Shown piece after piece: positions 5,128-60,605 of a DNA stretch of 64,000 bases; position 1 is the stretch's first letter; each line of letters starts with the position of its first letter. The position numbers and the translations under genes are program-made. The stretch spans positions 1 through 64,000 of the forward strand of contig CAVYIM010000006.1 of assembly GCA_963768655.1 (NCBI GenBank), written 5' to 3'. The DNA comes from an uncultured Chloroflexia bacterium (GTDB lineage Bacteria > Chloroflexota > Limnocylindria > Limnocylindrales > CSP1-4). Under the pieces are notes generated by a model. That model saw nothing but the letters and a program-made list of their open reading frames with translations, searched no databases and was not told the origin of the DNA.

Positions 5128-5190
5128 TGGGCGCCCGCAGGCGCGTTAGGCTTGGCTGATGACGCGGCGCGACGCAGAGACACTCCAGCG

Positions 5191-5913
5191 ATGAGCGGGC
5201 AGCCGGGCAGACTGCCCGCCCGCGACTTCGAGGAGATCCGCTTGGCCGAGGCGCTCGAGCGCCGGCGTTGCCCGATCTGCGATGCCCGCCAGGAGTCCGC
5301 CTACGCTGCTCTCCGCGGCCTGGCGCGCGAAGGCGCGACCGATCGCGGCCTCCGGGCCGACATCGACCGGGGTCTGGGGTTCTGCCAGGTCCACAGCGTC
5401 GGCCTCTCGAAGATGGAGCTGCTGCAAACGAGCAGCAAGCTGGCGACGGCGGTGCTGCTGGACGCGGTGCTGCGGCGACGCCTGGCGGCGCTCAAGAAGC
5501 TATCCGGCGCGGATGCCGTGGCGCAGGGGCGCGGGCTGGCGGACCTGGCCGATCCGCGATGCCCGGTCTGCGCCCGCGCTTCGGAAGCCTCGGGGATGGC
5601 CATCGATCGACTCCTTGCGCTCTCCGACGATCCGGCATGGTCGGCGGCCCTGGGCTCGGGTGAGCTGTGCCTGAGCGATCTCTGCGCCTTGTGGGCGGCG
5701 GCCGCGGCCGGCTCCCGGGACGTGCAGGAGCGTTGGCGCGGGATCCTGATCGTGCAACTCGCGCGCCTCGAGGCGCTGCAGAAGAAGCTCGCCGAGTATG
5801 CCCACAACAGCACCGTGGATCGGCGCCACCTGATCACCGGAGAGCAGCAGGAGGCGGCCGCCCTCTCGATCCGGCTTTTCGGCGGTTCCCCGGACCGCGA
5901 ACGAACTCGCTGA
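5191..5913 (+). CDS. DUF6062-like Cys-motif protein (copy 1)
   Basis: CPIC, GFCQVH, CPVC, LCLSD; -10-like GACACT 6 nt before the ATG. Confidence 0.7.
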   Translation: MSGQPGRLPARDFEEIRLAEALERRRCPICDARQESAYAALRGLAREGATDRGLRADIDRGLGFCQVHSVGLSKMELLQTSSKLATAVLLDAVLRRRLAALKKLSGADAVAQGRGLADLADPRCPVCARASEASGMAIDRLLALSDDPAWSAALGSGELCLSDLCALWAAAAAGSRDVQERWRGILIVQLARLEALQKKLAEYAHNSTVDRRHLITGEQQEAAALSIRLFGGSPDRERTR

Positions 5914-8147: not shown

Positions 8148-8816
8148 TCAGCCGCGGTATAGGAAGCAGCCCGGAAGGTGGTCATCGACCAGCCCGACAC
8201 TCTGCATGAAGCTGTAGACGATAGTCGAGCCTACGAAACGGAATCCGCGCTTTCGCAGATCTGTCGACAGCACGTCAGATTCGGGCGTGGTCGCTGGTAC
8301 GTCCTGCAAGCCGCTGCCCTTCCTGCGAGTCGGGGAGGGTCGGGGGAGCCGGGCCGCAAGGTAGGCTGCGAACGAGCCGTACTCCTCGGCCAGCTTGAGT
8401 ACGAGTGCGGCGTTGCCGACCGTCGCGTCGATCTTGGCCCGGTTGCGGACGATCGCGGCGTCGGCCAGCAGTCGCTCTCGGTCGGCCGCACCGAACGTGG
8501 CCACGACTTCGGGCACGAAGCCGGCGAAGGCCAGTCGGAACGCGTCGCGCTTACGCAGGATCGTCGACCACGACAGCCCGGCCTGAAAGCCCTCCAAGGC
8601 CAACCGTTCGAACAGGGCGTTGTCGTCCGAAACCGGAACGCCCCACTCCTCGTCGTGGTAGGCGACCATCAGGGGATCGGTTCCGAGCAGGCCGTCCGGC
8701 CACCAGCATCTCGATCGTGAGTCGCCGGCAATCCGCTGCTCTGCCACCTCTGCCGCGTGAGTCGCGCTTCCTTCCGGAGTCGAGAGGCCAAGGGGCTGAC
8801 GTAGCGACTCACCCAT
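8148..8816 (-). CDS. tag: DNA-3-methyladenine glycosylase I
   Basis: RCWW...YHDEEWGVP...LEGFQAGLSWSTIL...IVRNRAKI...GFRFVGSTIVYSFMQSVGLVDDH..C. Confidence 0.95.
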   Translation of the reverse strand: MGESLRQPLGLSTPEGSATHAAEVAEQRIAGDSRSRCWWPDGLLGTDPLMVAYHDEEWGVPVSDDNALFERLALEGFQAGLSWSTILRKRDAFRLAFAGFVPEVVATFGAADRERLLADAAIVRNRAKIDATVGNAALVLKLAEEYGSFAAYLAARLPRPSPTRRKGSGLQDVPATTPESDVLSTDLRKRGFRFVGSTIVYSFMQSVGLVDDHLPGCFLYRG

Positions 8817-47651: not shown

Positions 47652-48923
47652 ATGCCGCTACGGTCCGATTCCGAGAACTTCGCCCTGATACGTGTCATCG
47701 GTGTCGGGGGCGGCGGGTCCAACGCCGTCAACCGGATGATCCGGGCCGAGATGATGGGCGTGGAGTTCATCGCCTGCAATACGGATGCCCAGGCCCTTCT
47801 CCAGTCAGACGCGCCCCACAAGATTCGCATCGGCGACAAGATCACGCGCGGTCTCGGGGCGGGCGGCGATGCCTCCATAGGCCAGCGGGCGGCTGAGGAA
47901 GACGCCGAGAAGATCACCGACGCGCTGCGTGATTCAGACATGGTCTTCATCACGGCCGGACTGGGCGGCGGCACTGGCTCTGGCGCCGCCCCGATCGTAG
48001 CCGAGATCGCTCGGGACCTGGGCGCGCTCACGATTGGCGTCGTTACCAAGCCCTTCGCCTTCGAGGGTGTCCGCCGCAAGCTGGTGGCTGAGCGAGCGGC
48101 CGAAGCTCTCAAAGCCAAGGTGGACACGCTCATCACCATCCCCAACGATCGACTGCGCGACGTCGTCCAGAAGAACACCTCGTTGGTCGAGGCCTTCCGT
48201 TTCGTCGACGACGTCCTGCGCCAGGGCGTCCAGGGGATCAGCGACATCATCACCGTTCCCGGCCTGATCAACCTCGACTTCGCCGACGTTCGAGCCGTCA
48301 TGAAGGATGCCGGGTCGGCCCTGATGGGCATCGGTCGGGCGACCGGCGACAACCGGGCCCTCGACGCGACCCGCCAGGCTATCGCTAGCCCGCTCTTGGA
48401 GATCAGCATCAACGGCGCCCAGGGCATCCTGTTCAACGTCTCGGGCTCGTCCAACCTCAGCCTGTTCGAGGTCACCGAAGCCGCCGAGGAGATCCGCTCC
48501 GTGGCGGATCCGGAGGCGAACATCATCTTCGGCACGAGCTTCGACGACCGCCTCGGCGACGAGGTCATGATCACCGTCATCGCCACGGGCTTCGACGCCA
48601 GTCGCAAGCGCGAGTCCGCGCGGCGAGAGGCGGGTGCGGCCACACCGGGCACCGGCTACTCACAGCGCACGGACACCGCGGACTTCCTGGCGGAGCTGGA
48701 GCGCCAGCGCATCCACTCGGTGGAGCCGGTGCCGGTCCATATGCGGGGCGCGGGAACGTACGGTCCCACGGGCACGCTCGAGCGCGCCCCGGTGCCGGTG
48801 CCGATCCAGACCACGCCATCCGTTCGCCGGCCGCAAGTCGATCGGCCGCGGCCCACCTACGACGACACGGATCTCGAGATCCCGAGCTTCCTGCGGCGGC
48901 CGCCGCAGGAGGAGCAGGCGTAG
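47652..48923 (+). CDS. ftsZ: cell division protein FtsZ
   Basis: [26 protein letters not shown]-terminal LEIPSFLRR. Confidence 0.97.
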
Positions 48924-48935
48924 CCGCTGGCCGCC

Positions 48936-49661
48936 TTGGCCGGTCCCGATCCCGAAGACGTAGCGGCGTTTTCGGCCGCGCGTGCGCGCCTCCTTTCGGT
49001 CGTCGACAATGCGTGCCGGCGGGTCGGGCGCGACCCTGAGCGCGTCCAGCTCGTTGCCGTCTCCAAGACCGTACCCGCCGTGCGGTTGGGCGCTGCCGTC
49101 GCGGCCGGGCTGACGGTCCTCGGCGAGAACCGTGTCCAGGAGGCCGAATCGAAGGCACCATTGCTGCCGGGCGCGAGCTGGCATCTGATCGGCCCGCTGC
49201 AGTCGAACAAGGCCCGCCGGGCGGTCGAGCTCTTCGACGTCATCGAGTCGGTCGACTCGCTCGATCTGGCACGCAGGCTCGATCGGCTGGCCGGCGAGCT
49301 CGGCCGGGCGCCTCTGCGCATCTATCTGCAGGTGAACGTGGACCGCGACGAGGCGAAGGCCGGCTTTCTGCCCGAAGCCCTGGCGGTGGAGCTGGCCGAG
49401 CTCGCGGGGCTGCCGAATCTGCGCTTGCTGGGGCTGATGACGGTCGGCCGGCTGGTGGGTTCGGCCGAGGAGGCAAGGCCCACGTTCCGGCGGTTGCGGG
49501 AGCTGTCTGGGCGGCTGCGCGGGGCGCCCGGGCTCGGCGCGCCCGGGCTCGGCGCGGGGCTGTCGATGGGCATGACGGACGACTACCCTGTGGCCGTGGA
49601 GGAGGGCGCCACGGTCATCCGCGTCGGCCGAGCCCTGTTCGGGGCGCGGCCGGCCGGGTAG
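48936..49661 (+). CDS. yggS: PLP homeostasis protein (YggS family)
   Basis: VAVSKT, GENRVQE, WHLIGPLQSNK, LSMGMTDDY, IRVGRALFG. Confidence 0.94.
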   Translation: MAGPDPEDVAAFSAARARLLSVVDNACRRVGRDPERVQLVAVSKTVPAVRLGAAVAAGLTVLGENRVQEAESKAPLLPGASWHLIGPLQSNKARRAVELFDVIESVDSLDLARRLDRLAGELGRAPLRIYLQVNVDRDEAKAGFLPEALAVELAELAGLPNLRLLGLMTVGRLVGSAEEARPTFRRLRELSGRLRGAPGLGAPGLGAGLSMGMTDDYPVAVEEGATVIRVGRALFGARPAG

Positions 49662-49710
49662 GGGTGAGCAGGCGTCTGCGGGCCGCCGGGCGGGATGATC
49701 GGGCCGTCGA

Positions 49711-50064
49711 GTGGCGACTTTACGGAACGCGACCATAATCGGGACGCGATGGAATCCGATTTTCGTTTCGCGGATCGAACGCGCCGCTCGGAGGTTCGAA
49801 TTCGCCGTGCGCCTGACGCCCCGTGGCGGCGCCGATCGAGTCGACGGCGTGAATGAGGAGGGCGTGCTGCAGGCCAGGGTTTCGGCGCCGCCCGTCGGCG
49901 GTGCCGCGAATGCCGCCCTCGTCAGGCTCCTGGCCGATGAGCTGAACGTCGCCCGCAGCGGCGTGCGCCTCGTGGCGGGCGCGACCGGGCGGCACAAGCT
50001 CGTGGTCGTCGAGGGAGTCTCGCCCGAGGAGATCGCGGCCCGCTGGCCCGGCCTCAAGCTGTAG
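49711..50064 (+). CDS. DUF167 (YggU-like) protein; start uncertain
   Basis: VRLTPRGG...RVSAPPVGGAANAALV...GATGRHK. Confidence 0.85.
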   Translation: MATLRNATIIGTRWNPIFVSRIERAARRFEFAVRLTPRGGADRVDGVNEEGVLQARVSAPPVGGAANAALVRLLADELNVARSGVRLVAGATGRHKLVVVEGVSPEEIAARWPGLKL

Positions 50065-50106
50065 GGAGTGGCGCCGGCAGGCCGTCCCCGTCGCGGCGTG
50101 GCGCGC

Positions 50107-50372
50107 GCGGCCCCGGCCCAATCGCGGCGCGGCCCCGGCCCAATCGCGGCGCGGCCCCGGCGCGGCCCGAGCTCGGTCGCCCCAGTACGGCCCGGCCCAA
50201 TCGCTTGGGCTCCCCCGGCGCGGCCCGGCCGTCGCCGGCCGTCGCAGCCGGGGCCCGCCCCGGCGCGGCTAGTCGCGGCCCCGGCTGTCGCGGCGAGGCC
50301 CGTCGCGGCCCGAGCTCGGTCGCCCCAGCACGGCCCGGTCCAATCGGCTTGGGCTCCCCCGGCCCAATCGCT
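50107..50372. repeat. complex GC-rich intergenic repeat
   Basis: 22-bp tandem GCGGCCCCGGCCCAATCGCGGC x2; ~59-bp direct repeat at 50161-50219 and 50304-50363; recurring GGCCCAATCG. Confidence 0.8.
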
Positions 50373-50446
50373 CCGGGGCATCTGGTCAGACTTGCGCCCC
50401 ATGAGAGTTGGAGCGGATGAGACCGCCTCCGGCGTCCCCGGACCGG

Positions 50447-51227
50447 TCATCGGCCGCCCATCGAGCCCGCGCCCGAGCGTGGCCTTGGTGGTCGCGCGTG
50501 CTCCCGCCGCTTCACCACCCGCTGCAGGGCCGCGATCGGATGGCCAACTTTCGCTCCAGGCAAGTTCGGACCAGAAGGCGATGCCGGATTCGGGCCCACG
50601 CTCGGGGTGGAGGAAGAGGGGCCCAAGGGATCTACCGTCTCGCGAGAGGGCCGACCTCAGCAGGGTGCGGTGGTCGGCGACCCTGCGGCGGTTGGTGCTC
50701 GAGGCGGCGACTATCAGCCAGCCACTTACGGATCGGGCCGGCCAACCGCGGCTCGCCGCGATTTGGGCCGCCAGCCGGCGCTTCCGGTCGAGCGTCCCGA
50801 TGAGCTCGTCCACGTCGACGATGGCGGTCTTGAGCTCGATCACCGCGACCGAGCCCGTTGCGGCGTGCCAGGCCAGGAGGTCGATGACTCCGCGCTCGCC
50901 GTAGATGGCGAAGGAAACCTCGGCAACCACGACCCAGCCGGGCCGGCGTGCGATCCAATCAGCGACGTGTTCGCCCAGTGCCGCATGTCGGGCGTTGATG
51001 ACGCGGTCGAACTCGCCGCCGGCTGATCTCGGGACGAGTTCCAGGCTGACGCCGAGCTTCGCCGCGATTCCGCGCAGAACGCGCAGCGATGCCCGATCGA
51101 GTTCGCCGTGCTCCAAGCGAGACACGAGCGCGGCTGACACTCCGGCCTGCGCCCCCAGATCGATCTGACGCAGGCGGCGCCTGACGCGAGCGGCTCTGAG
51201 CGCGAGGCCGAGGTGGAGATCATCCAT
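50447..51227 (-). CDS. XRE-HTH + PD-(D/E)xK nuclease-like protein (probable frameshift ~50568; stop estimated)
   Basis: LRAARVRRRLRQIDLGAQAGVS..VSRLEHG; EVSF..GERGVIDLL...VIELKT; the 855-aa ORF is read-through. Confidence 0.75.
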
Positions 51228-51386
51228 CTACGCCAGGATGGACCGCGCGCCTCAACTTGCACTTATCTGGCGATTGCCCCCACGTCTCCGTGCCCCGCCT
51301 TCGGGCGCCAGGGGCGCGGTGTCGGCCCCGCCTTCTGTCGCCCGCCCGGTATAATCGGCCTCCGTCGCCGCCCCGACGCATGACGT

Positions 51387-51463
51387 GGGCGATTAGCTCA
51401 GCTGGTTAGAGCGCGCGGTTCACATCCGCGAGGTCACTGGTTCGAGTCCAGTATCGCCCACCA
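51387..51463 (+). tRNA. tRNA-Val(CAC)
   Basis: GGGCGAT/ATCGCCC acceptor, anticodon arm CGCGG-TTCACAT-CCGCG, GGTTCGAGTCC, encoded CCA; TATAAT -10 upstream. Confidence 0.97.
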
Positions 51464-51550
51464 ATCGCTCCTCTTCCTTTAGGCTGACATCGCCCGCGGC
51501 CGGCGGCTGGCGCCGCCCACCGGCGCCGCCCACCGGCGCTGCGCGGGGCG

Positions 51551-52921
51551 CTACGCGGCCAACATTTCGGCTCGCGGACCGTTCGCCCAGAGCCGGCGGA
51601 GCAGCCTGGCAAGGGCGGCGCCGTGGACCGCCAGGGGCGCCGGATAGCTGAACGTGAGCGTCCGGCTGGAACCCCGCAGCGTGACGCGGGCGATGAGCGG
51701 CGACAGAACCATCCCCACGCTTCGCATCTCGCGAAGCGACAGCCGTTCGGGCCGCGGGCCGACCACGCCCACCTCATCAGGACTCAGCCACAGACCGAGG
51801 GGCTGGCGCTGGCCTTCCCGGCGGGGGCTGTAGACGAAGGCGAGCAACTCACCCGCCTCGCGCCGGGCTGCATCATGGAGCGCCTGAGCTTCGTCGAGCT
51901 GGCGAAAGCGCTCGGCTGTTTCCTCGACGAACTCGACGGCCTCGGTCACATAGACACGACGCAGCCGTTCGCGGTTGCGCTCGGGCAGGAAGCTCGATGC
52001 GAGGGACTCGAACACGCGGACCTCGGCCTCGAGCTCCACCGGAAGGGCCACGTTGTGCCGGCCTCCCCCCGTCTGGAGGACGAGCCGCAAGGCATCGCGT
52101 TCATCCTCCACCCGCACGCCCGTGAGTTGCTCGACGGGCACCATGTCGACGTCCACGCCCCAATCGAAGAGGTACGAATCCGGGTTCGTGTGGTCGACCA
52201 GCCACAGGACCTGGCGGTCGGTGAGGAGCAGGAGTCCGGAACGGTGGTCTCTTCCGCCGCGGACGCGGGTGAGAAGCCCGGCGTCCGAACGCCACGGCCG
52301 CTCGATCGAGTAGTGCAGGCGCTCGTCCGGATCGAGCATGCCTTCGAGCCCGCGCAGGAAGCGCGGCGGCAGTCGATCCAACGAACGTTCGGCCTGGCTG
52401 TAGACGCCGCCCGACCGGAGAGCCTCCTCGGACATGCCCTCGGGCGGTCGCCATGCCAGACCGCCCGTGATCCGGCCGCGTCCCCGACGCTCCCGGAACG
52501 CCCGTCTTGCCGCCGAGGCGTGCTCCGAAGCGCGCGCCGCGTCGATCCACTCGGCGTCCGGCGACACACGCCCGACCGCTCGCAGAACGGCGTCGACGGG
52601 GAGCGTGGCGCCCGGCAGACGAGCCACCAGGACGAGACCGGCAGCGTCCGAGAAACCGCCGGCTAGCTCGGCGTCGATGCGAGCCCCAACGAAGCTGGAC
52701 GCCGGAAGCACCACCAGAGCCGGCACCTCGCGGCCGTGGCCATCGTCGGAATCGACGAGGAACCCCCGGTCGGCGCCGAGCCACAGGCCGCCGGCTCGGG
52801 CGCCGCGCGCCACGATGCCACCACGCGCTAGGTCGCGTTCGTAGTCGAGGCCCGGGCCGAGTGCCTCCTCGACCTCGACCAGGAGGGTGTGGCGGGAGTG
52901 GCGCGCGTCGCGGGCGGTCAT
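51551..52921 (-). CDS. hypothetical protein: degenerate family-I pyrophosphatase-like N domain + PH-like C region
   Basis: LVEVE..DYE...ADRGFLVDSDDGHGREVPALVV..SSFVGARI....GGFSD echoes the PPase fold; GLLLLTDRQVLW; ATGA-coupled to the upstream gene. Confidence 0.6.
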   Translation of the reverse strand: MTARDARHSRHTLLVEVEEALGPGLDYERDLARGGIVARGARAGGLWLGADRGFLVDSDDGHGREVPALVVLPASSFVGARIDAELAGGFSDAAGLVLVARLPGATLPVDAVLRAVGRVSPDAEWIDAARASEHASAARRAFRERRGRGRITGGLAWRPPEGMSEEALRSGGVYSQAERSLDRLPPRFLRGLEGMLDPDERLHYSIERPWRSDAGLLTRVRGGRDHRSGLLLLTDRQVLWLVDHTNPDSYLFDWGVDVDMVPVEQLTGVRVEDERDALRLVLQTGGGRHNVALPVELEAEVRVFESLASSFLPERNRERLRRVYVTEAVEFVEETAERFRQLDEAQALHDAARREAGELLAFVYSPRREGQRQPLGLWLSPDEVGVVGPRPERLSLREMRSVGMVLSPLIARVTLRGSSRTLTFSYPAPLAVHGAALARLLRRLWANGPRAEMLAA

Positions 52922-54306
52922 TGCGCGCTCCGGTGATGCGGCACGGCCCGAGCCGCTCTCCGCAGCTGCCGCCAGCGACCGATCGCGCGAGCCGTTTCTC
53001 GCTCGCTGATCGCCGCCCGCCCGTAGACCGCCAGTTCGTAGTCCGCGGCGAGCAGCCCGAGCGGCAGGCGCGGGAGCCCGAGTGTCCCTGTGCGCGCGGC
53101 GTGGACTTGGGGCGTCTCGGCCGGTCGCCGTCCCAGCTCGCCACGGCCGGCGAGCTCGTCCAGGAGCGCGAGGTACGCCTCCGGGGCCGTCGCTGGACGC
53201 CGCGGCAGGGCTGCGCGAGGATGGATGGCGAGGCGCGGCAGGTGGAGGTTCAAGCTCGGCGGGTGGACTTCCCTGCGGCGCTCCTCGCGTGGGGGCGTGG
53301 CGACCTTCGGTTCAGGCCGACTGACGGCGAACCTGCGGAATCCGACGGCCAGCAGCACGATGACGGCGACGACACCGGCCACCACCAGCCAGCCGAGGGG
53401 CAGCGAGCCCCCGGGCACGGGTCCGCCGAGTGACGACACAGTGTGCGGGCCGCCGGAGCTCCCGGCGGCGGTCCCGGTCGTGGGAACGCTTCCACCTGTG
53501 CCGAAAAGGGAAGGCAGATGTATGCCGTTGAGCACCTGCCCGATCGCGGCCGCCAGCGCGACGAGAAGACCGCCGAGCGGTGCGAGCAGCAGGCCGATCG
53601 CACCACCGACCGGGCCGCCGATCGCAGTCAGCCCGTCCCGGGCGGAGGTCCCGCTCAAGATCGCGATCGGGATCCCCAGAGCCGCGACCACGACCACTAC
53701 GCCGGTCGAGACCATCGCCCAGGTGCGCCCGCCACGGCTTTCCGAGCCGAGTAGCTCGAGCTCCCGCAGGCGAGCGTGGCCGATCGCGAGCAACCCAGCC
53801 GCCACGCAGACCGCCGACCCGACGAGGGCCGGCCCAACGAAGGGGCCGGAGGATCGAAGGTGGGGCAACCACGAGGCGGCCAGCACCGGGAACGCATACG
53901 CGAGCGCCCGGGTCGAGGTTTCGATCTCGTCGTCCGCGTGCTCGTGGGCTGCGCCTCGAAGAACCGCGACGCCGAGCAGCCAGCCTGCGGGGTGAACGAG
54001 GAGGGCGCTCAGCGGGTTGTCCAGGGCCGCGAGGGTCGTCCGGGCCGCCGGATCGACGAGCCACCCGAGAGCGCCGGCAAGCACGGCGAGAGCCGCGATC
54101 CACGGCACCCGCGGCGTTGATCGAGGGCGCAGGCGAGCCCAGACGAGCCCGGCCACGGCCGCCGGGCAGAACTCGACGAGTGACAGCGGTGCGCTCGAGC
54201 TCGCGCCCAGGAGCGCGATGGCGGCGTACGCGACGCCTACGAGGCTGCCTTCGAGCAGGCCGTCGAGGGCAAGAGGCAGAAGATCAGCTCGCCAGGACCA
54301 ACGCAT
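52918..54306 (-). CDS. multi-pass membrane protein with C-terminal DUF4129 domain
   Basis: Many TM segments; AYLALL..L...G..RRPAETP..HA...LAADYELAVYG. Confidence 0.8.
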   Translation of the reverse strand: MRWSWRADLLPLALDGLLEGSLVGVAYAAIALLGASSSAPLSLVEFCPAAVAGLVWARLRPRSTPRVPWIAALAVLAGALGWLVDPAARTTLAALDNPLSALLVHPAGWLLGVAVLRGAAHEHADDEIETSTRALAYAFPVLAASWLPHLRSSGPFVGPALVGSAVCVAAGLLAIGHARLRELELLGSESRGGRTWAMVSTGVVVVVAALGIPIAILSGTSARDGLTAIGGPVGGAIGLLLAPLGGLLVALAAAIGQVLNGIHLPSLFGTGGSVPTTGTAAGSSGGPHTVSSLGGPVPGGSLPLGWLVVAGVVAVIVLLAVGFRRFAVSRPEPKVATPPREERRREVHPPSLNLHLPRLAIHPRAALPRRPATAPEAYLALLDELAGRGELGRRPAETPQVHAARTGTLGLPRLPLGLLAADYELAVYGRAAISERETARAIGRWRQLRRAARAVPHHRSAQ

Positions 54307-55519
54307 CGCTCGTCCGCCAGTCCGGGGCCAGAGACCCGCTCGTCGCGGTCAGTCCGACCGCCCGCGCCGCCGCCACGGCACGCGGGCCGTCCGCGCCGAG
54401 CCCAACGAATTGCACCGGATGGCCCGACCGGTCGAGCCGGGTGAGAGAGGTGAGGTAAGGCGCCGGGTCGCGGGCGGCGAGCACGATCACGGTCGTGCCC
54501 GGCGGGATCGTCCACGGCAGCCGGGCGATGAGCCGCTCGAACGGCGCCGAAGGGACCTCGCTCAGGCGCCCCAGCAGGTCGGTGATGGCGGCCAGCTGGT
54601 CGCGGCCGGCTCGAGGCGCGACGAGGGCGAACCGATCGACCGTCCGGCTGAACGCAGCCGCGGCAAGCCCGCACGACGCACCCTGGGCGAGGGCGTGGCG
54701 CGCCAGCGACGCCGCCGCGACCATCAGGCTCTCGACGAGTTCTTCGTCGAAATGGAGCGTCCAGTGCGGGCCCGGCATCGTCTGCACGTCGAGCGCGATG
54801 AGGACCTCACGCGCCCGCGATGGGTCGAACCGCTTGCTCACCGCCGCCCCCGTCCTGGCCGTCGCCCGCCAGTGAACGCGTCGCAACGGATCGCCAGGCT
54901 GATACGGGCGGACACCGGCGAAGAGAGCCGGGTCTTCGAACAGGCTTCGCTGGGCGGGCAGGAATCCGAGTGGCAGGCGCTGCGGGCTGGCGATCCGCAC
55001 GGGCACGCTGCGCGGCCGGACGATGTACGTGGCGCGGTCTTCGTGCTCCTCGGTCGCGGCCCCGCGCCCGAACAGGTCGGCGACCGTGACCTGGACGGGG
55101 CCGAAGGAGTAGACGCCGCGGTGGTCCGCGGCGATCGTGAGGTGGCGCACGACGCGCTCGTACCAGCCTACGGTCCAGCGACTGCGCAGAACGGTGAATC
55201 CCGGTCGGTCGCTCCGCGCGAGCGGTTCGTCGCGCACCACGGCGCCCTGCGTCGCAAAGTCATCGATCGACAGCCAGGCCAGCGGCAGGGGTTTGTCGTT
55301 CCAGACGGCGATGTCGAGCGGTACTTCGTCGCCCCACACCGCCCGGTCACGGCCGATCCGCCTCTCGTAGTGGAGGTCGCGCAGGCCGTAGCGGGTCCAC
55401 AGCTCTGTTACGCCGGTGGTGAAGAGTGCGAGGAGCCCCACGAGCACGAGCCCCGGCGCCGCCGCGACGGCGCCGGCTGCCACCATGGCGAGGCCGAAGG
55501 CGAGTCCCCAGCGGGTCAT
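54284..55519 (-). CDS. DUF58 (vWA-like) protein
   Basis: RGVYSFGPV...DLFG, GVRPYQPGDPLRRVHWRATARTG. Confidence 0.9.
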   Translation of the reverse strand: MTRWGLAFGLAMVAAGAVAAAPGLVLVGLLALFTTGVTELWTRYGLRDLHYERRIGRDRAVWGDEVPLDIAVWNDKPLPLAWLSIDDFATQGAVVRDEPLARSDRPGFTVLRSRWTVGWYERVVRHLTIAADHRGVYSFGPVQVTVADLFGRGAATEEHEDRATYIVRPRSVPVRIASPQRLPLGFLPAQRSLFEDPALFAGVRPYQPGDPLRRVHWRATARTGAAVSKRFDPSRAREVLIALDVQTMPGPHWTLHFDEELVESLMVAAASLARHALAQGASCGLAAAAFSRTVDRFALVAPRAGRDQLAAITDLLGRLSEVPSAPFERLIARLPWTIPPGTTVIVLAARDPAPYLTSLTRLDRSGHPVQFVGLGADGPRAVAAARAVGLTATSGSLAPDWRTSDALVLAS

Positions 55520-56520
55520 CGCTCGCGCACCGGCACCGGCACCGACGCAAGCACCTCGGCCAGCACCCGCTCGATGGTCGCGCCGCGGAGCTGGCGGTCC
55601 ACGTCGAGCAGGAGGCGGTGGCCCAGCACCGGGCCCACGACGGCGGCCACGTCGTCGGGCAGGATGAAGGCCCGGCCCTCGAGCGCTGCCCATGCCTGGC
55701 TCGCCCGGAACAGGGCCACGCTCGTCCGCGGGCTCGCCCCAAGGCGCAGATCGTCGTGCTCGCGCGTAGCCCGGACCAGGTCGACGGCATAGCCTTCGAC
55801 GGCATCGCTCACGACGATCTCGCTCACGGCCCGCCGCAGCGCGAGCAACGTGTCGCGATCGACGATCGGCGTGATCCGGTCGAGCGGCTCGTCGCCGCCT
55901 TGATAGCGCCGGGCGATGCGCCGCTCGTCGTCCCGGCTCGGGTAGCCCAGGGTCACGCGCAGCAGGAATCGGTCGAGCTGGGCTTCGGGCAGCGAGAAGG
56001 TTCCCTCCAGCTCGATGGGGTTCTGCGTGGCGACGACGAGGAAGGGCGCGGGCAGCGGCCGGGTTTCGCCCTCGATCGAGACCTGGCGCTCCTGCATCGC
56101 CTCCAGGAGCGCGGACTGGGTCCGCGGCGTGGCGCGGTTGATCTCGTCGACGAGCAGGACGTTGGCGAAGACCGGACCCGGCAGGAAGCGCAGACGTCCG
56201 GCTTCGAGAATGCTCGAACCGGTTACGTCGGTTGGCAGCAGGTCGGGCGTCCCCTGGATCCGGCCGAAGGACAGGCCCAGGGATTGCGCGAAGGCGCGCG
56301 CCAGCAGTGTCTTGCCGACCCCGGGAACGTCCTCGATCAGGGCGTGACCGTCGGCGAGCAGGGCAACGGCAAGGAGACGCAGCGCCGGCTCGTCGCTCAC
56401 GACCGCGACGGCGACGGCATCGCGCAGGTCGTGCCAGAAGCGGCCGACGCGCGCCTGACCGGAACTCGGATGCCCGGCGGCAGGCGTGGCCTCTGTCTCG
56501 AGCGGCTCCGTGGCGCTCAT
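55516..56520 (-). CDS. MoxR-family AAA+ ATPase
   Basis: [61 protein letters not shown]. Confidence 0.95.
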
Positions 56521-57062
56521 CGTTCCCCGCCGGGAGCGGTCGTGTCTGCGGGATCTGCCGCCCTCGGATCTGCCGCCCTCGGATCTGCCGCCCTCGGATC
56601 TGCCGCCCTCGAGGTGTCCGCCGGCGGATTGTCCGCCCGGGCGCCGAGTCGCTCGATCGCGCGTTCGAGCAGCTGCCGGTCGGCATCGTGCGTTAGCATC
56701 CGCAGTCCCTCCTCCAGGCTCACGAACCTCGCCTCGGCGAAGATCGGCTCGTGCTCGATCTCGCCGCCGACGCGGTGGGCGAGGAACCAGTCGACCTGCT
56801 TGCGGTTCGCCGTGCCGTTGTGGCTCTTGAACTGGTATCGCGTTGACCCAAGCGCGTCATCCAGCGCGATCTCGACGCCCGTCTCTTCGCGGACCTCGCG
56901 GCGGGCGGCAGCTTCGGGCGCCTCGTTTCGCTCGAGGTGGCCCTTCGGGAACGCCCACTCGTGCCCGCGCCGGATGAGGAGACACCTCCCCTCGTCGACT
57001 ACCACCGCACCCGCCGAGTGGTGGAACACGAGTCGAGATCGAGATGAGACGATCGAGCTCAT
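56517..57062 (-). CDS. NUDIX hydrolase (Ap4A-hydrolase-like)
   Basis: [33 protein letters not shown] Nudix box; GGAGG RBS before ATG 57062. Confidence 0.9.
56551..56610. repeat. 15-bp tandem repeat x4 in the NUDIX C-terminus (RAADP)
   Basis: GGATCTGCCGCCCTC x4. Confidence 0.95.
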
Positions 57063-57080
57063 GGCTCGGCCTCCGCAATG

Positions 57081-57111
57081 AAAAAGGCTCCCGGACTGCG
57101 GTCCAGAAGCC
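57081..57111 (-). terminator. intrinsic terminator, riboswitch expression platform
   Basis: GGCUUCUGGAC-CGCA-GUCCGGGAGCC followed by UUUUU; 5' arm overlaps the aptamer pseudoknot strand. Confidence 0.85.
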
Positions 57112-57151
57112 ATCACCCGTCGACCGGGAAACTGCGCGAGCTTCATCGCGC
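57105..57151 (-). promoter_or_regulatory. fluoride riboswitch (crcB motif) #2
   Basis: GCGC-GAUGAAGCUC-GCGC ... CCCG..CGGG-UGAUGGCUUCU; GAAGCU/GGCUUC pseudoknot; TAGCAT -10 at 57167-57172. Confidence 0.85.
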
Positions 57152-57192
57152 GTTCAACTAACCGACATGCTACCGCGTCCCGGCCTGGCTGG

Positions 57193-58011
57193 CTAATCGT
57201 GTGGTTCGGTGTGGCTCGTGGCCCGATCCGTACCCTGGCCGTGCCCGTGCCCGTGCCCGTGCCCGTGGCCGTGGCGCCACTCCCAACCTTCGCGCCCGCC
57301 GAGCACTTCGGTCGCCTGCGAGGCGGAGACGTGCTGCTCATGGGTCAGGCGATGCTGGCGGTCGTAGGTGCTGTCGTGCGCGTAAGCCTCAAGCGATGCC
57401 CGAAGCTCCGCCAGCCGCTCGAGCTGTCGGTCCAGGACGGGCCGGACGCTCGCCAGCCGCTTCTCGTCGGCGGAGGCCGCCCGGGCCAACAGGACGATGT
57501 CCGGAAGGCACAGCGGCGCGCGGGCGAGCGCCTCACGCCAGCGCGCGCTGTCGAGGCGATGGAGCAGTCGCTCGATGGCGCGCTCGACCGCGTCGTCTTC
57601 GGCGGCACAGGCAGGGCAGTCGGACGCCGCGGCCGCCCGGTCGAGCTGGCGCGCACTCGTTCGACCCGGCTCGGCGTTCGCGTCGGCCAGCCGCTCGATC
57701 CGCTGGCGCAGCACCGACTCGAGGAGAATGGCGGCGCCGAGCGTGCCGCCCATCTCTTCGCGATCTGCCTCGAACAACCCGACGGTGTGGCGCCCGCAGA
57801 AGCCGCGCGACCTCTCCAGCACGCGCCGAAACCCTACGTCATTGACGCCTTCGTTGACGAGCGACCGGAGGAAGCGCCGGCCCTGGGCGACCCGGTGGCG
57901 GCACAGCGGGCAGCCGGCCTCGAACAACTCCTCGGATAGGCCGATGTCGACGTTGTCGTGCGCTTCAAGCTCCGCTGCCTTGCGACTCGCCTCGGTGTCG
58001 CGGCGGGCCAT
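57193..58011 (-). CDS. DUF6062-like Cys-motif protein (copy 2) with HG-repeat tail
   Basis: GCPLC, GFCGRH, CPAC, LCLPD; tail [10 protein letters not shown]. Confidence 0.72.
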
Positions 58012-58012
58012 C

Positions 58013-58516
58013 TCAGGCCTCTCCGTCAAGGGCCGGGCCGGCGGGCGGTTCCACGAGCGAGGCTGAGGCCACGCCGTCCGGCGATCCCGAAACCGGCCCG
58101 TTCGCCTCCAGGCCGACGTCTTCGAGGGCGGAGACGAGCTCCATCAGCCGCTCGACCGCCGGATCGAGCGTGGCGCGCAGGGCCGGGTCCACGTGACCGT
58201 AGGCTCGAAGACGGCGACTCTTGACCTCGGCCAGGCTCTCCCAGGAAACCCTCATTAGCCCGGCGATCTCGCGGGCAGAGTCGCGCTGTTGGATGGCGAG
58301 ATGGAACGCCTGGGAAACCGACGCGATCGTCGAGCGCAAGTCGGCCAGCGTCGTGTCGACGCGCGCTCGCTCTTCGCGCGACCAGGCCGGCCGAAGGCGG
58401 TGGTACAGGAGGCCGTCCTCGTCGCGGTCGAGCAGCTCCTCCACGCGGGCCAGGCGCTCCTCGAGCAGCCTGAGCGCCACGCTCACGGCGCGCTCCTGGT
58501 CGGGATTGAGGCTCAC
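58013..58516 (-). CDS. hypothetical helical protein
   Basis: LNPDQERAV..L..LEERL...W..L.E....RLRAYGHV; between eno and DUF6062. Confidence 0.75.
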   Translation of the reverse strand: MSLNPDQERAVSVALRLLEERLARVEELLDRDEDGLLYHRLRPAWSREERARVDTTLADLRSTIASVSQAFHLAIQQRDSAREIAGLMRVSWESLAEVKSRRLRAYGHVDPALRATLDPAVERLMELVSALEDVGLEANGPVSGSPDGVASASLVEPPAGPALDGEA

Positions 58517-58574
58517 GGTTGGCCCGGACGAGTCGGGCCCCCATACGAAGGGCCCGCCGCGTCTTCAGGCTGGC

Positions 58575-59885
<1,311 letters not shown>

Positions 59886-60008
59886 TCAGCCTTTCCGCCG
59901 GCGGCTGGCCGGCCAACTCTGAGCGTGCCGGCGCCGAGCCAGTGTCGGAGTTTGGGGGAAGATCCGCGAAGGACCATGCTGGCTCCGGCTGCGGGTTGCT
60001 TCACGAGA

Positions 60009-60080
60009 AGAAGCTGTCATCGGCCGAGCCGCGGTTCGCCGGCCCCGGTCTTGGGAGGTCGGCTGGCGAGCCTCATCGCC
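60009..60080 (-). promoter_or_regulatory. fluoride riboswitch (crcB motif) #1, upstream of eno
   Basis: GGC-GAUGAGGCUC-GCC ... UGAC-AGCUUCU; GAGGCU/AGCUUC pseudoknot; TACAAT -10 at 60087-60092; competing GCUUC/GAAGC hairpin. Confidence 0.7.
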
Positions 60081-60110
60081 GCCGCCATTGTAGCCGCAAT
60101 GCCGGCTTGA

Positions 60111-60605
60111 TCAGCCCGGCGGGAACCGAGCGCCGGCAGGTTGCCTCCGCGCCCCGGACTCCGTGTCCGGCTCGACCACGACGAAGCGTCCGCCGGGTCG
60201 CAGGGACCGCGAGAGTGCCGCCAGCGTGGCCGGCAGCGCGGCCCGATCGACGTCGTGCAGGACGAAGTGGGCGAGGATCACATCGAAGCGAGCGTCCGGC
60301 AGCGCCAGTGCGGGTGCCTCGCCGAGCAGGAACCGCACGTTGGCCTGGCGCCGAAGCCGCTGCCGCGCCTCCGCGAGCCACGCCGGCGAGACGTCCAGGC
60401 ATGTCAGCCGTCCGCCGCGATTCAGGGCCCAGGCGAGGTAGACGGCCTCGGAACCGGCGCCGGAACCGAAGTCGAGGACGTGCTCCGTGCCGGTGAGCTC
60501 GAGCGACGCCACCAGCCGGCGCAGGTAGCCGGCCCGGAGCGGGTCGTACACGAGGCGGTATCCGGCGCGGGCGAGGCGAGACGGGGCGGTGTAGTTGTGG
60601 GGCAT
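60111..60605 (-). CDS. class I SAM-dependent methyltransferase (short, possibly truncated)
   Basis: VLDFGSGAG, CLDVS, FDVI..HFVLHDV, LRPGGRFVVVE. Confidence 0.8.
   Translation of the reverse strand: MPHNYTAPSRLARAGYRLVYDPLRAGYLRRLVASLELTGTEHVLDFGSGAGSEAVYLAWALNRGGRLTCLDVSPAWLAEARQRLRRQANVRFLLGEAPALALPDARFDVILAHFVLHDVDRAALPATLAALSRSLRPGGRFVVVEPDTESGARRQPAGARFPPG

Follow-up and report, generated by a model that had tools for sequence, protein, structure and literature searches.

A pyrophosphatase-derived pseudoenzyme with PH-like domains is linked to fluoride riboswitches in Chloroflexota

Introduction

Fluoride resistance is usually attributed to exporters and to extra copies of fluoride-sensitive enzymes. 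The gene described here appears to encode neither. It occupies positions 51551 to 52921, on the minus strand, of a 64,000-nucleotide stretch of DNA from an uncultured Chloroflexia bacterium (assembly GCA_963768655.1, contig CAVYIM010000006.1, positions 1 to 64,000; hereafter the window). Its 456-residue product joins a degenerate family I inorganic pyrophosphatase (PPase) fold to two PH-like domains, and its relatives are found behind fluoride riboswitches.

One point of comparison is the regulon that fluoride riboswitches control, which takes in crcB/Fluc, CLC-F, enolase, pyrophosphatase, Na+/H+ antiporter and mutS-like genes. One paper lists the genes for pyrophosphatase, enolase and Na+/H+ antiporters among the most frequent associates of these riboswitches (PMC11139923, citing Baker et al. 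2012), and another has the crcB motif also preceding mutS-like genes (PMC2864571). The family described here likewise lies behind above-threshold matches to RF01734, the Rfam fluoride riboswitch model, and, in line with those two papers, it keeps regulon-like company in enolase, Na+/H+ exchanger, MutS-V and NUDIX genes. It differs from the usual members of the regulon in that its residues suggest neither the role of an exporter nor that of a replacement enzyme. The leaders in the window itself also differ from those of the regulon in scoring below the Rfam threshold.

The main new result is the riboswitch linkage of this PPase/PH family in relatives of the source organism. The family is a PPase-derived pseudoenzyme with a new architecture, it is firmly tied to fluoride riboswitches and it belongs to the fluoride-riboswitch regulon of Chloroflexota. 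Literature searches on PPase-like/PH proteins, pyrophosphatase pseudoenzymes and Chloroflexi fluoride riboswitches turned up no description of the family, with the proviso that the supplements of Baker et al. (2012) could list such genes under 'pyrophosphatase'.

A conserved family with a pyrophosphatase fold

A preliminary description of the window had placed a degenerate PPase-like domain, fused to one or more PH-like domains, at 51551..52921 and had named no strand. This holds. The open reading frame has an ATG start, matches those coordinates exactly and encodes one conserved protein in which a PPase-like domain is followed by a linker, probably flexible, and two PH-like domains. A word-indexed search found homologues in 78 protein clusters at 40-90% identity, which have either no name or the name 'hypothetical' and no Pfam domain, and a scan of species-representative genomes found them at 61 loci. 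Nearly all of these loci are in Chloroflexota metagenome-assembled genomes, labelled Limnocylindrales/Limnocylindria, Chloroflexia or Chloroflexi. The 78 clusters and 61 loci mark the target as a real conserved gene. Pfam and NCBIfam searches with the whole protein and with its halves returned nothing significant.

The relationship to PPases emerged from profiles and from an intermediate clade. The only phmmer match in the PDB is a PPase (3d63) at a non-significant E of 1.5, and the target itself (P0001) has no match to PF00719, the Pyrophosphatase family of Pfam, with the E-value limit raised to 10. A profile of 43 family sequences has PPases as six of its seven PDB matches (E 0.09-2.3). Aligned by hhalign with five genuine PPases from related genomes, the family reaches a probability of 75% (E 2.5e-5) over 135 columns spanning the whole PPase. 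An exhaustive profile search collected 221 representatives at E <= 0.001 and brought in a second, remote Chloroflexota clade of proteins of ~470-560 residues, which align end to end with the close clade of the target (hhalign probability 100%, E 1.5e-53, 450 columns). PF00719 is matched at E <= 0.01 by 29 of 30 members of the remote clade and by none of 43 members of the close clade. This bridge of homology makes the target a diverged member of a PPase-derived family rather than a convergent look-alike.

The predicted structure agrees. The N-terminal domain comprises residues 7-146 (52484..52903, minus strand). When the AlphaFold2 model of the whole protein (predicted local distance difference test, pLDDT, 87.2; predicted template modelling score, pTM, 0.64) was searched with Foldseek, only PPases appeared among the 50 matches listed, the best at E 5.6e-7. 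VIA aligns it to the Mycobacterium tuberculosis PPase 1sxv with Z 12.6, 114 residues, 23% identity and a root-mean-square deviation of 3.2 A; the alignment runs over model residues 10-144 and the whole 1sxv chain (0-159). The five-stranded barrel and flanking helices of family I extend over the entire domain. Profile, hhalign, Foldseek and VIA results thus bear out the claim that the first ~140 residues follow the order and spacing of family I PPases, and the fold, checked with AlphaFold2, Foldseek and VIA, is that of a PPase and not one unrelated to the barrel.

Two kinds of described protein are the nearest relatives in this respect. With the family I PPases of PF00719 (Rv3628, 1sxv/1wcf; E. 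coli Ppa, 1ino/1faj) the target shares the fold of the whole domain, over 114 of 160 residues, and it is homologous to them through PF00719-positive intermediates. However, it carries a C-terminal extension of ~300 residues with two PH-like domains, and its close clade does not match PF00719. The vacuolar soluble PPase of trypanosomatids (5cuy, 5cuu; structural match Z 12.0) similarly combines a PPase core with a non-catalytic accessory domain. In that case the extra domain is an N-terminal EF-hand domain and the enzymes are presumably active, judging by their PDB titles. The target instead has its extra, PH-like domains on the C-terminal side of a core that appears to be dead.

Loss of the active site

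A genuine PPase from a related genome served as the ruler for the active site, which we take to consist of fourteen residues (E. coli numbering: E20, K29, E31, R43, Y51, Y55, D65, D67, D70, D97, D102, K104, Y141 and K142). The target retains two of them, the equivalents of E20 and E31, and none of the five metal-binding aspartates. The segment DGHGREVP (D60-P67) overlies the DxDxxD motif, so that D65, D67 and D70 become H62, R64 and P67. Elsewhere D26 takes the place of K29, L48 that of Y51 and R52 that of Y55, and D97, D102, K104, Y141 and K142 have no counterpart in the target. This residue-level alignment agrees with the initial observation that DxDxxD reads DGHGREVP and that the lysines and tyrosines are gone. 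The loss is not peculiar to the target. K29, Y55, D67, D70, D102, K104, Y141 and K142 are kept in none of 74 close-clade members and none of 75 remote-clade members. With twelve of the fourteen active-site residues replaced, hydrolysis of pyrophosphate (PPi) is not to be expected. On these residues the family is a conserved pseudoenzyme, and what the regulon would list as a 'pyrophosphatase' is predicted here not to be a replacement enzyme.

One consequence concerns nomenclature. Of ten remote clusters that were looked up, six carry the source names 'inorganic pyrophosphatase' or 'inorganic diphosphatase'; the members so named by NCBI or JGI are P0122, P0131, P0221, P0109, P0114 and P0125. Because eight catalytic residues are absent from all members examined in both clades, the name is most likely wrong for the whole family, and the misannotation systematic.

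What if the old site has been remodelled rather than abandoned? It might bind an anion or complex such as PPi, phosphate or a Mg-fluoride species, making the protein a sensor or a sponge, with the PH-like domains relaying the signal or localising the protein. The metal aspartates have given way to Arg, His and Pro, which, with an R52 shared by all 74 close-clade members, could form a metal-free anion pocket. The close clade also conserves acidic and basic motifs, DRG and SDDGxG, in this region, and inhibition of PPases by fluoride is expected to raise PPi (PMC11139923). However, the replacement of K29 by Asp or Glu disfavours anion binding. In addition, the N-terminal domain has almost no conserved polar residue in common between the two clades, which in an alignment of 72 sequences share only two nearly invariant columns in this domain, both glycine. 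A remodelled binding site of this kind is unlikely as the main function, if the least unlikely of the alternatives to be considered here.

The linker and the tandem PH-like module

Where, then, is the conservation? The same 72-sequence alignment of both clades points to the region that follows the barrel. The linker (residues 147-199; 52325..52483, minus strand) has a first part that is modelled with low confidence and a second part with motifs conserved across the superfamily. The pLDDT of only 52-68 at residues 141-180 points to a probably flexible tether for the PPase-like domain. In the linker, the nearly invariant columns are W157, A177, E178, L184, P185, R187 and L196. Counted here with W157, the polar residues that are nearly invariant in the two clades together are E178, R187, E200, R201, R208, D235, D243 and E264, which lie at the end of the linker and, for the most part, in the first PH-like domain. 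It is their location that points to this region, and not to the former active site, as the likely working surface of the protein.

The first PH-like domain with its C-terminal helix comprises residues 200-310 (51992..52324, minus strand), supported by the model, VIA matches and conservation, and the second, with its own helix, residues 359-447 (51581..51847, minus strand), supported by tandem-PH matches in Foldseek and by a VIA match. The LLLTDRQVLW stretch that had been singled out as a bacterial PH-like strand does belong here, residues 230-240 forming two strands of the first domain. A separate model of residues 151-456, made with 72 sequences, is confident (pLDDT 92.0, pTM 0.90) and shows two sandwich domains that pack rigidly against each other, a long helix capping each. 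By the order of secondary structure and by structural matches, the seven-stranded sandwich with C-terminal helix that defines the PH superfold occurs twice.

Foldseek with this C-terminal part is led by tandem-PH proteins, including BBS5 (E 4.7e-5) and Rtt106 (E 1.1e-4). A VIA comparison against all representatives has nearly all of the best 50 matches listed (Z 8.7 to 5.6) as PH, GRAM, PTB or PH-like domains, judged by PDB titles. MTMR2 is first (Z 8.7), the bacterial PH structures 3b77 and 3hsa reach Z 7.2 and 6.6, and the PH domain of p62 aligns to residues 169-298 of the C-terminal model with Z 6.0. Values in this range support a shared fold only. Like BBS5, Rtt106, Spt16M and the bacterial PH proteins 3b77 and 3hsa, the target is predicted to have two consecutive helix-capped PH-like sandwiches, but the eukaryotic tandem-PH proteins among these (BBS5, Rtt106 and Spt16M) serve unrelated processes.

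Sequence families add little. None of the Pfam families bPH_1 to bPH_11 reaches its gathering score. A weak match to bPH_11 (E 0.11) falls on the N-terminal piece of the target, and weak matches to bPH_3 occur in one of 30 remote members (E 0.0021) and in two of seven short relatives (E 0.0045 and 0.0058). In the ESM Atlas, residues 150-456 score 0.92 with unnamed clusters and 0.81-0.82 with clusters of DUF4429, bPH_3 and BBS5, values that serve as leads only. Prediction of a homodimer of two 456-residue chains scored 0.38 against a mark of 0.42, a value that does not bear on self-association either way.

Four short relatives (P0194, P0200, P0201 and P0206; 355-379 residues) keep the linker and tandem-PH module and lack the PPase-like domain, which is replaced by a different N-terminus of ~50-80 residues. 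This segment looks like a ribbon-helix-helix by eye only and matches no Pfam family at E <= 1; the Pfam matches that these proteins do have (E 0.11-0.23) are all in the C-terminal part. The exchange of N-termini hints at a modular sensor or adaptor. That a catalytically dead PPase had been reused as a sensor or adaptor was also the initial proposal for the target. The dead fold and the attached PH-like domains stand, and the binding or adaptor role is one that we infer.

Fluoride riboswitches upstream of relatives

The link to fluoride proved stronger than had been claimed from the window. RF01734 was tested on eleven loci in which a riboswitch-type element is directly linked to a homologue, and six pass the threshold, with the RNA directly upstream of the homologue (L060, 46.8; L047, 43.1; L015, 41.6; L033, 40.0; L032, 39.5; L044, 36.3 bits). 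In two further loci the target follows an above-threshold riboswitch as part of a longer string, after a CBS-DUF190 gene and before two MutS-V genes in L056 and after a Na+/H+ exchanger gene in L010. The remote clade, for which flanks of 1.5 kb only were available, has an above-threshold riboswitch upstream in three of 14 loci, directly so in L080 and L081 and ~800 nucleotides away in L075. Another five remote-clade loci have weaker upstream matches, on the same strand, to a second model described next.

This covariance model, R1, was built from four above-threshold elements and six elements of the types found in the window, and in the window and the 61 loci together it has 137 matches at E <= 0.1. 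A match lies within 650 nucleotides upstream on the same strand, with no labelled gene between, in 28 of the 61 loci. In 18 more a strong match is farther upstream, and between the nearest such match and the target there are only labelled genes of the same strand. Four loci have only a weak 53-nucleotide variant, ahead of a NUDIX gene. Since R1 is the analysts' own model and includes window-type sequences, these counts are less independent than those from Rfam. In L016, the one locus examined from a group with a distance of ~500 nucleotides, a small HEAT-repeat protein is encoded between the RNA and the target.

Several neighbours recur within 5 kb of the target. MutS domain V genes, mostly as a tandem pair, are present in 31 of the 61 loci, enolase and MFS transporter genes in 14 each, NUDIX genes in 13 and CBS-DUF190 genes in nine. 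Genes for MoxR, DUF58 and DUF4129 occur in 17 loci each. Order and orientation vary and the company stays constant, which favours a functional link over synteny alone.

The MutS-V genes merit a comment of their own. They encode proteins of ~500 residues with MutS domain V as the sole Pfam match (e.g., L031 11320-14291, minus strand; L056 5311-8348 and 11564-14640, plus strand), their orientation varies and in several loci they have a canonical or 53-nucleotide riboswitch-type leader of their own. L056 contains two fluoride riboswitches, at 5184-5272 and 8436-8524, that are identical over the 89 nucleotides aligned. The MutS-V pair follows one of them, and CBS-DUF190 and then the target follow the other; the identity of the two suggests a recent duplication of the leader.

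Is the target simply a part of the MoxR machinery? On this explanation it would be a dedicated accessory or client of a MoxR-DUF58-DUF4129 machine with no independent role. In the window the DUF4129 stop and the target start overlap by 4 nucleotides, and in the 17 loci where the MoxR set is within 5 kb the order is nearly always MoxR-DUF58-DUF4129, an unknown 493-residue gene and the target. However, the MoxR-DUF58 neighbourhood, coupled to the target in the window, is far from constant, being limited to those 17 of the 61 loci overall. In 28 of 61 loci the target immediately follows a riboswitch-type element of its own, and no MoxR set was detected there. NUDIX directly precedes the target in L003, L006, L007 and L009, with no MoxR set between them, and in L047 the MoxR set is downstream of the target. 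An exclusive tie to MoxR is improbable.

The gene string and its leaders in the window

In the window the target is the last of five minus-strand genes. The first encodes a NUDIX hydrolase of 181 residues (56517..57062; PF00293, 76.5 bits), and it is followed by genes for a MoxR-type AAA+ ATPase of 334 residues (55516..56520; AAA_3, 194.5 bits, and AAA_lid_2, 71.1 bits), a DUF58 protein of 411 residues (54284..55519; PF01882, 42.2 bits) and a DUF4129 membrane protein (52918..54306; PF13559, 33.4 bits). Successive genes overlap by 4-23 nucleotides. Ahead of the string is a riboswitch-like leader (57086..57159, minus strand) made up of a 53-nucleotide aptamer (57097-57159; RF01734, 14.6 bits; R1, 18.3 bits) and an intrinsic terminator (57086-57111). 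The terminator is an 11-base-pair stem with a T run, appears as a hairpin in the predicted fold and is the sole terminator-like site in 51200-60300. Reading along the minus strand it occupies 57111-57086 and overlaps the GGCUUCUGG tail of the aptamer, the arrangement of an expression platform built on the aptamer 3' tail. The statement that the target "ends the riboswitch operon" thus stands as to gene order, five overlapping genes behind one leader, and needs qualifying as to the RNA, both window elements being below the Rfam threshold.

The second element (60004..60089, minus strand; RF01734, 20.0 bits) contains an inserted hairpin and lies upstream of an enolase gene (58575..59882, minus strand; Enolase_C, 384.7 bits), which is itself upstream of the NUDIX string. 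A DUF6062 gene and a 167-residue gene of unknown function separate enolase from the leader region of the string. The enolase leader was considered as a direct regulator of the target and is unlikely to be one, given the separate aptamer and terminator between DUF6062 and NUDIX. The most plausible regulator of the target is the RNA at 57086-57159.

Both elements belong to conserved classes. The 53-nucleotide class is represented by 33 aligned copies (the window copy and 32 in L001-L060) and is very conserved, with the sequence CGCGAUGAAGCUCGCG ... CCCG-loop-CGGG-UGAUGGCUUCUGG. The window copy, the only one scored by Rfam alone, has the P1 stem, both GAUG cores, the P3 stem and a 5-nucleotide complementarity between loop and tail. 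This complementarity is GAAGC/GCUUC where the Rfam consensus has GGAGU/ACUCC, so that two pairs are changed on both sides. The class further departs from the consensus in P1 and in the linker, where UUU, AAU or UAU replaces AAC. The copies that were printed are followed by a hairpin, in most cases with a T-rich tail, and in the loci examined the class lies upstream of NUDIX genes, MutS-domain-V pairs and an unknown 262-residue gene. Covariation is weak because conservation is so high. Nine of 16 pairs never vary, several pair types occur only at pair 3-20, and the covariation score of 0.083 compares with 0.057 in shuffles, none of 500 of which reach it. The two-sided change relative to the consensus is a stronger argument than covariation, and the class looks like a fluoride riboswitch with two altered pseudoknot pairs and a different linker.

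The enolase-leader class recurs in L005 (3414-3490), L006 (1308-1385), L007 (7233-7308), L009 (4330-4402) and L036 (9488-9564). Its members have a hairpin of ~25 nucleotides inserted between P1 and P3, and their loop-to-tail complementarity is apparently displaced by two bases. The window element aligns with riboswitches of this lineage that do pass the threshold, and these carry the same inserted hairpin, the stems of which covary.

A few features of the surrounding DNA can be recorded. The C-terminus of the NUDIX protein (56520-56600, minus strand) has four in-frame AADPR repeats, and that of the DUF6062 protein (57193-57260, minus strand) a run of GH dipeptides. On the opposite strand a tRNA gene (51387-51460, plus strand) lies ~90 nucleotides beyond the target stop. 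Beyond it, 48660-51227 (minus strand) encodes an 855-residue protein whose sole Pfam match is an HTH_3 domain at its N-terminus.

A fluoride response in this genome?

Taken together, these observations favour, with reasonable but far from complete confidence, a cytosolic PPase-fold/PH protein without catalytic activity that serves as an adaptor or sensor in the fluoride response and is made as the last cistron of an operon led by a fluoride-riboswitch-like RNA. In this scenario a rise in fluoride would make the leader RNA fold and prevent formation of the terminator. Failure of the terminator would release the NUDIX-MoxR-DUF58-DUF4129-target transcript, with the target as its last cistron. The protein would then bind a partner protein or ligand through the surface formed by the linker and first PH-like domain, the PPase barrel acting as a scaffold or a remodelled binding pocket with no PPi hydrolysis. 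The target would thus probably have a non-enzymatic role in the response to fluoride stress.

Several observations count against this explanation. Neither window element reaches the RF01734 gathering score of 34 (20.0 and 14.6 bits), and a canonical, above-threshold fluoride riboswitch was not found anywhere in the source assembly, which is 88.6% complete. Among the relatives, five of the eleven directly linked loci (L014, L016, L017, L022 and L048) are likewise under the Rfam threshold. Eleven of the 61 loci have no upstream R1 match; seven of these have a contig end close upstream of the target or gene string, and four (L012, L018, L057 and L059) have full flanks. Because every genome belongs to a single phylum, the loci cannot count as independent, and inherited synteny may account for some of the linkage. 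At the protein level, the conserved DRG and SDDGxG motifs could still bind something, which leaves a pure scaffold unproven. Finally, searches of the assembly, at its 88.6% completeness, failed to turn up a soluble PPase of either family I or family II, and this leaves some room for an unorthodox enzyme.

The RNA evidence bears on whether the genome has fluoride control at all. Perhaps the leaders are decayed or retuned relatives of riboswitches, and the operon is constitutive or answers another signal. The sub-threshold scores fit this, as do the departures of the 53-nucleotide class from the consensus in linker and P1 and the failure to find CrcB in the genome. However, the variant retains P1, P3, both GAUG cores and a 5-base-pair complementarity in which two pairs have changed on both sides. 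Moreover, the terminator overlaps its tail, and it precedes NUDIX and MutS-V genes in loci that also carry canonical fluoride riboswitches. A divergent fluoride-riboswitch family of which every member is under the Rfam threshold is reported in bioRxiv 10.64898/2026.10.21.760802, which makes sub-threshold variants plausible. Loss of fluoride control is thus rated a long shot. With sub-threshold RNAs in the window and no canonical riboswitch found in the genome, the case for control here rests on homology with relatives, from which we infer it.

What, then, of an unorthodox, fluoride-insensitive pyrophosphatase that relies on a different set of residues? In its favour are the PPase fold, the fluoride-riboswitch control in relatives and the database name of the remote relatives. 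The failure to find a soluble PPase in this genome fits too, and PF00719 is present in only four of 21 related genomes. On the other hand, the five metal-binding aspartates are among the twelve catalytic residues lost, no alternative conserved acidic cluster is common to both clades, and PPi hydrolysis is covered by a membrane H+-PPase (C2:2-2077, 760 bits). An enzyme of this sort is the most improbable of the explanations considered.

Other genes of the fluoride response can be sought in the same assembly. CrcB/Fluc and DUF190 were not found in its 88.6%, and there is one CLC gene (C3:574111-575151). R1 has only one strong match genome-wide, the enolase leader, the other eight having E 0.003-0.07. 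A second enolase gene at C3:622747-623619 brings the number found to two, and the placement of the window copy behind a riboswitch-like leader suggests that it may be a stress-induced extra copy.

An adaptor or sensor of the fluoride response, the explanation preferred here, can be taken one step further, albeit speculatively. The protein might belong to a protein-level, non-transport arm of fluoride defence in which the dead barrel and the tandem-PH module recognise a fluoride-induced state and protect it, sequester it or hand it over to quality control by the MoxR and MutS-V ATPases. Candidate states would be accumulated PPi, Mg-fluoride-phosphate adducts or poisoned phosphoryl-transfer enzymes such as enolase. 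This more detailed proposal is attractive but doubtful.

Concluding remarks

In this lineage the PPase/PH family ranks among the genes with the most consistent fluoride-riboswitch linkage, and its residues correct a likely database misannotation of 'pyrophosphatase'. Alongside it are two divergent classes of fluoride-riboswitch-like RNA that escape the Rfam model. The family adds a clear example in which the fold of an ancient housekeeping enzyme has been put to non-catalytic use. It further provides a testable handle on a fluoride response that does not depend on an exporter, which is relevant to engineering fluoride tolerance for the degradation of organofluorine compounds. If a non-transport arm of fluoride defence does exist, it would explain how fluoride is coped with in a genome in which no CrcB channel was found.

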